64,000 nucleotides of DNA, from NCBI GenBank assembly GCA_951406725.2, contig OX597818.1, forward strand, positions 129,022,001-129,086,000, read 5' to 3'. Source of the stretch: Octopus vulgaris. Lineage: Eukaryota. Positions 11,787-36,535 of the stretch are shown piece by piece (the first letter of the stretch is position 1; every line of letters begins with the position of its first letter). The translations under genes and the position numbers were made by a program. Under the pieces are notes generated by a model. It worked only from the letters and a program-made list of their open reading frames with translations. It searched no databases and was not told the DNA's origin.

Positions 11787-12594
11787 TTATATATATATAT
11801 AAATATATAGACATTTATATAAACACACATACACACACATGCACATATACATATATAAAGTAAATTTGCATGCAGATGTAAACAAAACCACTTAAGTAAT
11901 ACATTCATAAGAACACACACACACACACACACACACCACACACACACACACCACACACACACACACACCACACACCACACCATACCACACACATACACAC
12001 ATGCACAAACACACATCCCGACATTCGAACACAAACACGAATACACACAAATCTATTTATATTTATTTATTTCTGAAAACATATTCTTAATTGAAACAAT
12101 CAATTTAGAGATATTATTTGAAAAATATAAATTTTAATCAAACTCATTCAACATTATTTATATTATTATTATTAACAATACAAAACTCATAGTTATTATC
12201 ACTTGCCAAAAGTTTGAGAAATTCTATTGGTAAATTTTGGAAAACTGTAAATGAGAGAATTCTGAGAGTAGATAATGGAAACAAAGGAATAAATTATCAA
12301 TATGTAATGGTGGGTGATGGGCCAGGGAGGGCCAAATTATTTTATATTCTTTACTGTTTTGAAGTTGCTTGGAGACTCAGATTTAGTTTTGTTTTTATTT
12401 ATGTATTCATTTATTTATTATGATAGGGATCAGGCGTTATGCATTATATGAGAATATGATCATGCATGCCTTTTCCAAATATATAATATGGGCACAGGCA
12501 TGGCTGTGTGGTAAGTGGCTTGCTTCCCAACCACATGGTTCCCAGTTCAGTCCCACTGTGTGGCACCTTAGGTAAGTTTCTTCTACTTGAGATT

Positions 12595-12667
12595 GGCCCT
12601 GTGGCCTAATGGATAAGGCGTCGGCCTCCGGAGCCGAAGATTGTGGGTTCAAGTCCCATCAGGGTTG
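12595..12667 (+). tRNA. tRNA-Arg (anticodon CCG), complete cloverleaf; probably a retrocopy
   Basis: Acceptor GGCCCTG/CAGGGTT, D-arm GCCT/AGGC, anticodon arm TCGGC-CTCCGGA-GCCGA, T-arm GTGGG-TTCAAGT-CCCAT, discriminator G; A and B boxes intact. Confidence 0.92.
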
Positions 12668-12675
12668 ATAGCCAC

Positions 12676-12682
12676 TTTTTTT
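12676..12682 (+). terminator. RNA polymerase III terminator (T7)
   Basis: TTTTTTT starting 9 nt after the tRNA discriminator (8-nt trailer between). Confidence 0.7.
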
Positions 12683-12683
12683 C

Positions 12684-12906
12684 AAGGCGGCGTGCTGGCA
12701 GAATCATTAGCACGTAGGGTGAAATGCTTAGCGGTATTTTGGCTGCCGTTACGTTGTGAGTTCAAATTCCGCCCAGGTCGACTTTGCCTTTCATCCTTTC
12801 GGGATCGATAAATTAAGTACCAGTTACACACTGGGGTCGATGTAATCGACTTAATACCTTTGTTTGTCCCCTCTCTATGTTTAGCCCCTTGTGGGTAATA
12901 AAGAAA
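12684..12906 (+). mobile_element. SINE family B, full length
   Basis: aaggcggcgtgctggcagaatc..tgtgggtaataaagaaa. Confidence 0.9.
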
Positions 12907-13024
12907 TAGGTAAGTGTCTTCTACTATAGCCTCAGACTGACCAAAGCCTTGTGAGTGGATTTGGTAGATGGAAACTGAAAGAAGCTCATCACACACACAC
13001 ACACACACACACATGCACACACAT

Positions 13025-13065
<41 letters not shown>

Positions 13066-13286
13066 TACGTATATATTTGTGTACAGTGTCTGTGTTTATC
13101 CCCCCACCATTGCTTGCCAACTGATGTTGGTGTGTTTACATCCCTGTAACTTAGTGGTTCAGCAAAAGGGGCTGATAGAATAAGTCTTACAAAGAATAAG
13201 TTCAGGGGACGATTTCCTCAACTAAAAGTTGGTGCTGCAGCATGGCCACAGTCAAATGACTGAAACAAGGAAAAAATAAAAGACTA

Positions 13287-35825: not shown

Positions 35826-36535
35826 AGGTGGTGACCCGGCAGAATCATTACTGCATCAGACAGAATGCTTAATGGTATTTTGTCTGTCTTAAGGCGGCGA
35901 GCTGGCAGAAACGTTAGCACGTCGAGCGAAATGCGTAGCCGTATTTCGTCTGTCGTTACGTTCTGAGTTCAAATTCCGCCGAGGTCGACTTTGCCTTTCA
36001 TCCTTTCGGGGTCGATAAATTAAGTACCAGTTACGCACTGGGGTTGATGTAATCAACGTAATCCGTTTGTCTGTCCTTGTTTGTCCTCTCTGTGTTTAGC
36101 CCCTTGTGGGTAGTAAAGAAATAGGTATTTCGTCTGTCTTTATGAAAGGTGGTGAGCTGGCAGAATTGTTAGCACGCCAAGCGAATGCTTAGCAGTATTT
36201 CGTCTTCCGCTACGTTCTGAGTTCAAATTCCGCCAAGGTCGACTTGCCTTTCATCTTTTCAGGTTTGATTAAATAAGTACCTGTTATGCACTGGGGTCAA
36301 TATAATTGACTTAATCTGTTTGTCTGTCCTTGTTTGTTCTCTCTGTGTTTAGCCCCTTGTGGGTAGTAAAGAAATAGGTATTTCATTTGTCTTTATGTTC
36401 TGAGTTCAAATTCTGCCTATATCAACTTTGCCTTTCATCCATTTGGGGGTTGATGAAATAAATACCAGTTGAGTATTGATGTGATCAGCTTACCCACTTC
36501 ACACAGACTGCTGGCCTTGTGCCAAAATTTAAACT
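35826..36535 (+). mobile_element. Nested SINE family B cluster (two copies inside an older copy)
   Basis: Copies start at about 35891 and about 36146; GGTATTT(C/T)(G/A)T(C/T)TGTCTT is repeated at about 35874, 36125 and 36377. Confidence 0.85.

Follow-up and report, generated by a model that had tools for sequence, protein, structure and literature searches.

The tRNA-Arg(CCG) found in a 64,000-nucleotide stretch of the Octopus vulgaris genome (hereafter the window) is the head of a retrotransposed chimera, in which an unprocessed tRNA precursor and a full-length SINE are fused in the same orientation and enclosed by one target-site duplication. The class of sequences to which it belongs is of more interest than the locus itself, which is a clean example and otherwise unremarkable. 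We regard this class as an unusually frequent, pre-tRNA variant of the U6-type chimeric retrogenes.

On balance we lean towards reading the hundreds of sense pre-tRNA/SINE chimeras of this genome as products of end-to-end template jumping, and as a fossil catalogue of Pol III primary transcripts whose starts and stops can be traced to single genes and which include an RNA of about 95 nt. On that reading they would also form the largest pool yet seen of the intermediates that have long been proposed for the exchange of SINE heads, and a few full-length heads, possibly that of the window, may be live tRNA genes spread by SINEs. How SINEs come by a new tRNA head is normally worked out from families already formed, whereas in this genome the primary events themselves can be seen in large numbers. 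As parents, joints and duplications can all be counted, jumping, ligation and read-through become testable against each other from the sequence.

Architecture of the insertion

All of the parts that the first-pass annotation named were found again at the same coordinates, and are listed below. The two SINEs are given the working labels family A and family B. Named octopus SINE families are OK, OR1 and OR2. The latter two appear as SINE names in PMC4758252 and PMC4824008.

12490..12587, +, 5' portion of the host family A SINE, up to the end of the left repeat (74-89% to the other copies in the window)
12569..12587, +, target-site duplication, left copy (direct-repeat comparison, scored against a null)
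12588..12594, +, 5' leader, 7 nt (leader comparison with the C24 and C20 loci)
12595..12667, +, tRNA-Arg(CCG) body, without CCA, A and B boxes intact (ARAGORN, Rfam)
12668..12675, +, 3' trailer, 8 nt (7/8 identical to the C20 and C24 trailers)
12676..12682, +, T7 run, the presumed Pol III terminator and oligo-U end of the precursor (sequence)
12683..12683, +, one additional C between T7 and SINE B, likely non-templated (sequence, joint tally)
12684..12908, +, full-length family B SINE from its usual 5' end, the final 2 nt lying within the right repeat
12907..12925, +, target-site duplication, right copy (direct-repeat comparison, scored against a null)
12907..13283, +, 3' portion of the host family A SINE, including the CA microsatellite inside it and the tail (end placed by eye)

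ARAGORN calls a single tRNA in the 64-kb window, an Arg(ccg) at 12594-12668, and Rfam model RF00005 matches 12595-12667 over its full length with 65.1 bits. The leader, trailer and oligo-T are kept and the CCA is absent, as proposed for an unprocessed precursor. The T7 is separated from the start of SINE B, at 12684, by one C, and the fusion is in sense. The window copy of SINE B is about 8 nt shorter than its paralogues.

The claim of a 19-bp duplication inside a family A SINE, around the tRNA and the full SINE B together, also holds. The direct repeat (12569-12587 and 12907-12925) is identical at 18 of 19 positions and scores 15, where a score of at least 10 arises by chance in 0.6% of mismatched locus pairs. 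Both copies carry the private variant TAGGTAAG, which is present in one of the 11 counted family A matches in the window (TGGGCAAG is present in six), so that they are a true duplication of the insertion site. Excising the insert and one repeat in silico leaves a colinear family A SINE, approximately 90% identical to its best paralogues in the window. The opening TA of the right repeat doubles as the usual 3' end of SINE B, which makes for microhomology at that junction. As this is the only duplication, and it lies around both parts with no second one at the insertion, the tRNA and SINE B can be taken to have moved as one retro-insertion, as first suggested.

The empty site was sought in sequencing runs, of which 24 were listed, eight with at least half of the sampled words, and the contigs of four were compared at 85% likeness, with SINE paralogues swamping the matches. 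The joints listed across the insert look no different from those of other family A copies, and none of the listed pieces crosses a junction; the unique left flank lies on a long contig in three of the four runs. The window also contains long stop-free frames.

A genome-wide class of chimeras

To place the locus in context we searched the genome (2.8 Gb, 227 contigs) for a pattern made up of a tRNA B box, a trailer, a T-run and the head of SINE B. This gave 53 matches, against three for an antisense control in which the B box was reversed, and so supplies the count of tRNA-SINE B chimeras that the first-pass annotation had proposed. The same pattern with a SINE A head gave 120 matches, a figure to be read with the B-box-reversed control covering family B only. 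The event that had been presented as single is therefore one member of a large class. Controls with the whole pattern reversed gave no matches for either family but are weak, as a reversed SINE head does not exist. Some of the pattern matches are SINE fragments or chance and not tRNAs; at the head of the 40 B loci examined, out of 53, Rfam finds a tRNA in 21, plus the window, and further 5'-truncated tRNA heads on B loci were recognised by BLAST. The isotypes among the chimeras include Glu, Asp, Gln, Thr, His, Lys, Ala, Ser, Phe, Arg, Met and Ile.

Duplications were surveyed at the 46 of the 53 B loci with a recognisable 3' end, the other seven having none. A duplication scoring at least 10 was found at 22 of the 46, compared with 0.6% under the null, and at the remaining 24 no duplication reached this threshold. 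In 19 of the 22 cases the duplication brackets an upstream element together with the SINE, and 11 of these 19 elements are Rfam tRNAs, the window included. The 19 duplications mostly end a few bases ahead of the mature tRNA start. The other three bracket the SINE alone, and none of these three has a tRNA.

Sequences were fetched for 30 + 20 of the 120 SINE A matches. Family A chimeras have a duplication at one of 22 loci, which is not above the null, and ordinary full-length family A copies are like them in this respect, with one in 11. For the family A chimeras a single-event origin would draw its support from orientation and from parent matches.

At the joints of 34 hand-picked B loci of the tRNA type there is no extra nucleotide in 21, one in seven, including the window, and two in six. 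The duplications are 10-24 nt long, and the 22 SINE B targets resemble the 3' end of SINE B itself. Insertion at sites like its own 3' end would explain both the tandem arrays of SINE B and its nesting in family A, examples of which lie in the window at 2255-2671 and 35891-36470. The RTE insertion signature is Tn-TA, with a T stretch ten bases upstream (PMC13295347). Such a stretch at -10 is not evident in the 22 B targets, and this test does not identify an RTE element as the partner LINE.

Parent genes

The pattern search for full-length Arg(CCG)-like loci found seven in the genome: one each on C9, C20, C10 and C24, two on C15, and the window. The tRNA body in the window is identical to the C20 and C9 genes at 72 of 73 nt; the sole difference is C72T, at a CpG in the acceptor stem, which gives a G1-U72 wobble. 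The trailer motif occurs without mismatch at exactly three loci, which are the window, where SINE B follows, the C24 locus, where the trailer leads directly into a full SINE A, and the C20 gene, where there is no SINE. The last 6 nt of the leader match the C24 copy at five positions and the C20 gene at three. The first-pass annotation had called for a parental tRNA with the same leader and trailer: the trailer is shared with the SINE-free C20 gene, while the leader is absent from every SINE-free locus among the seven. These comparisons point to the C20 gene lineage, or to a paralogue that the assembly lacks, as the most likely source of the tRNA.

Segmental duplication was ruled out as the link between these loci, as the upstream flanks of the window, C24, C20, C9 and C15 share no homology. 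At the C24 copy (L003, C24:13134001, minus strand) eight of the 10 nt directly upstream of the leader agree with the closing 10 nt of the left repeat, and the match covers the one letter that separates the left from the right repeat; it was picked after the fact and is possibly due to chance. The C9 gene (L004, C9:53847752) has dispersed, decayed copies with no SINE head (L006, L008-L010, L012-L014, L016). These carry up to approximately 65 nt of downstream sequence, past a T4, and in three of them (L008, L009, L014) a segment on the 5' side is inverted, in the manner of twin priming. On C20, near 5.23 Mb, there is a tandem array of Arg(TCG).

Three of the seven Arg(CCG)-like loci are chimeras, two clear and one a decayed candidate, so that in genomes of this kind high-scoring retrocopies inflate the number of tRNA genes counted.

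Parents are easier to recognise for tRNA-Glu(TTC), of which the genome has 59 full-length pattern matches. The leader and trailer of the SINE-free gene L163 are common to L087 and L068, each with a full SINE B, and to L151, with a 5'-truncated one. The SINE-free gene L165 shares its leader and trailer with L057 (SINE B) and its trailer also with L171, where the SINE is of family A, so that one trailer is found on both families. The trailer of a third SINE-free gene, L167, is common to L105 (SINE A). For a group of four copies with the trailer CGGCATT, no Glu parent was present among the loci fetched. A retroelement-free parent, as would be expected for U6-type chimeras, is thus found for Glu chimeras; for the window the C20 locus has no SINE and shares the Arg body and trailer, but not the leader.

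Clusters of tRNA genes offer a further comparison. A 150-kb cluster on C10 (C10:81830001-81980000) contains 65 ARAGORN tRNA calls, 63 of them Glu, and none of the 65 has a SINE head within 55 nt. The B bodies that stand behind a shared trailer differ from each other by a distance of 0.096-0.118, where the median for random pairs is 0.100; being no closer than random pairs, they represent independent events. These comparisons show the pattern of repeated joining in trans, and not the one that would be left by read-through of a fixed tRNA-SINE source or by SINE insertion targeted to resident genes.

How the two parts were joined

We think it probable, and with good confidence, that the tRNA and SINE B were joined by end-to-end template jumping of a LINE reverse transcriptase during target-primed reverse transcription. 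A LINE protein would have made its nick in the family A copy where the sequence is similar to the 3' end of SINE B, and primed on SINE B RNA. The SINE would then have been copied to its 5' end and a non-templated base added, after which the enzyme may have switched to a nascent pre-tRNA-Arg(CCG), entering at its oligo-U 3' end and reading through trailer, body and leader. Integration would finally have duplicated the target, and this step is the one seen as a scar. The R2 enzyme makes end-to-end template jumps in vitro, for which non-templated addition is required (PMC8857657, PMC8594491). High dATP suppresses R2 jumping in vitro (PMC8594491), so that a simple pairing of an A overhang with the U tail is not established for the joint. 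The first-pass annotation had allowed for a template switch, for ligation or for co-transcription. A template switch fits best, while read-through is disfavoured and so is ligation, in the latter case by an argument from the chemistry of RNA ends.

Read-through would require a lost or unassembled tRNA-Arg gene with a SINE B behind its terminator, whose transcript was retrotransposed as a unit. A parent with the leader of the window is indeed missing from the assembly, and Pol III does read through in this genome, as the approximately 65 nt past a T4 in the C9 Arg(CCG) copies indicate. A T7 run is, however, a strong Pol III stop. The Arg trailer is moreover found with SINE B, with SINE A at C24 and with no SINE at C20, and two different SINEs cannot both follow directly on a single source gene. 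The identified Glu parents have no SINE, nor does any of the 65 clustered genes, and the B bodies of chimeras that share a trailer are unrelated. We therefore consider read-through very unlikely.

Ligation of the 3' end of a pre-tRNA to the 5' end of a SINE RNA, before reverse transcription, would yield the same sense orientation and the same single duplication, and the 21 of 34 joints without an extra letter agree with it. The primary Pol III transcript of a SINE has a 5' triphosphate and a pre-tRNA has a 3' hydroxyl, whereas the ends that the ligase RtcB requires are a 5' hydroxyl together with a 3' or cyclic phosphate, which counts against this route. The 1-2 extra letters at 13 of the 34 joints also speak against it, as does the start of the SINE at its natural 5' end in the matched chimeras, although this is partly because the search demanded an intact head. 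Ligation has been proposed for U6/LINE-1, with RtcB named as a route (10.1101/2025.02.02.635956); for the octopus chimera we give it no better a chance than read-through.

Least probable, to the point that we give it hardly any credence, are two separate insertions, in which SINE B arrived first or second and a pre-tRNA copy landed exactly at its 5' end, or in which the T-run of a tRNA copy serves as a target for SINEs. In favour of this, other repeats readily receive SINE B, and such an origin is possible locus by locus for the family A chimeras, which leave no duplication. At C24, for instance, SINE A could have struck a resident gene (with the post hoc 8/10 match of its flank to the left repeat end). 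Against it, the window locus lacks a second duplication, and where a B locus has a tRNA head the duplication never encloses just the SINE. The sense bias is also strong (53 against 3), and the resident clustered genes on C10 have not been hit.

Fate of the tRNA copy

Whether selection maintains the tRNA copy as a working gene is a separate question from its origin, and we consider this unlikely. The cloverleaf, anticodon, A and B boxes and terminator are all present, and there are just seven full-length Arg(CCG)-like loci in the genome. The copy also differs from the resident genes at one of 73 positions, compared with 18 in 223 for the B body, counted from the family majority (Poisson P about 0.02). 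Against this, all 18 of the B differences recur in other copies, 12 of them in at least four rows, so that the distance to the majority overstates the age of the insertion. Pooled over the class, duplication mismatches amount to just 5 of 334, a figure biased low by the way duplications are detected. Full-length chimeric Glu and Asp heads are as diverged as truncated ones, 73/1296 against 81/1455 (P = 1), a test that includes four mis-assigned or indel rows and gives 5.1% against 4.2% when these are removed by hand. The sole change in the window tRNA is, moreover, a CpG transition in the acceptor stem.

The copy is most likely a young-looking pseudogene that has kept its promoter boxes and terminator, as far as can be judged from its sequence. 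The idea that the insertion created a new functional tRNA gene finds no support, there being no excess conservation of full-length heads across the class. The same applies to the idea of a new SINE head, as no daughter copy of the Arg(CCG)+B unit was found. The genome pattern searches gave one Arg(CCG)+B locus, which is not what a composite SINE family would show, and the nearest of 51 other B copies is 7.2% away from the B part of the window. The unit is possibly a starting point for a new SINE head; it is not a new family.

Relation to known chimeric retrogenes

Chimeric retrogenes described previously include U6/L1, U6/Alu, U6/L2 and U6/Mon-1 in platypus, and U6/RTEX and U6/AnolisSINE2 in lizard, and the L2 and RTE clades are stated to form only such chimeras (PMC4476161). 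The window insertion resembles these in having a complete Pol III RNA copy at its 5' side, ending in oligo-U (oligo-T in the DNA), a direct fusion in sense, and one duplication around the whole. It differs from them in that the 5' partner in the octopus class is an unprocessed tRNA with leader and trailer, of many isotypes, that can be traced to individual genes. On the 3' side there is typically a full-length SINE, as in the window, unlike the 5'-truncated LINE of human U6/L1. The class is also much larger, with at least 173 pattern matches compared with the handful per genome reported for U6 chimeras (PMC4476161).

Human tRNA/LINE-1 chimeras are likewise made up of a tRNA and a retroelement inserted together, with a duplication of 9-19 bp, but their 21 loci are mostly antisense tRNA halves and are ascribed to twin priming (10.1101/2025.02.02.635956). 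The octopus heads are in sense, comprise the whole precursor or a 5'-truncated form of it, and meet the SINE at the oligo-T end. Precursor tRNAs also served as templates for a LINE enzyme in the pre-tRNA retropseudogenes of Schmitz et al. 2004, which are stand-alone L1 products and not SINE heads (as cited in PMC4476161). A further chimera of this kind is WEIRD/Mg-SINE of Magnaporthe, in which a cellular noncoding RNA lies 5' of a SINE within one duplication and template jumps are invoked; it consists of one long RNA and a 5'-truncated SINE, with no tRNA (PMC2104539).

Acquisition of a head by template switch has been proposed for finished SINE families (PMC5786205, PMC7245038, PMC4758252, PMC4824008), among them the birth of SINE1-1_EBu in hagfish (PMC7245038); RTE-derived SINEs (PMC5786205) and the exchange of SINE modules in molluscs (PMC4758252) have also been described. 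As in these families, a small RNA has been added 5' of an existing SINE and a template switch is the proposed route. The families are amplified and their origin is inferred, whereas the chimeras described here are unamplified single events, that is, the proposed intermediates. The literature searched, most of it outside subscription papers, contained no description of a genome-wide class of sense pre-tRNA/SINE chimeras, and the string 'chimer' is absent from the main text of a recent octopus repeat annotation (PMC13282606).

Other Pol III RNAs at SINE heads

U6 takes part as well. Among the 30 best of 48 U6 matches, 17 have a SINE head or tail fragment directly behind them, and two of the three U6/SINE B loci have a bracketing duplication. 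The same process appears to have joined many tRNA isotypes and U6, repeatedly, to several SINE families in this genome. Behind the remaining U6 loci among L193-L222 lie other, unassigned repeats.

Some tRNA heads (L070, L128, L129) exceed the length of a mature tRNA and appear to retain an intron, which would be further evidence of unprocessed templates. At L175 a pair of tRNA-Asp/SINE A chimeras that share one trailer is arranged back to back, the two pointing in opposite directions (C10:71093244 and 71093382). Several tRNA-like heads that ARAGORN does not call recur on both SINE families (L072 with L182-L184; L054, L081 and L115; L073 and L089), which suggests further unannotated Pol III RNAs or SINE heads.

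The RNA-like sequence of about 95 nt (L051 at 1445-1540, L076 and L190-L192, on C1, C11 and C23) has a terminal stem, a B box and a T-run. It has no meaningful Rfam match, and no resident gene was found for it. Four of the five copies found head a SINE B, two of them with bracketing duplications; the copy at L190 has an A-rich tail and a duplication instead.
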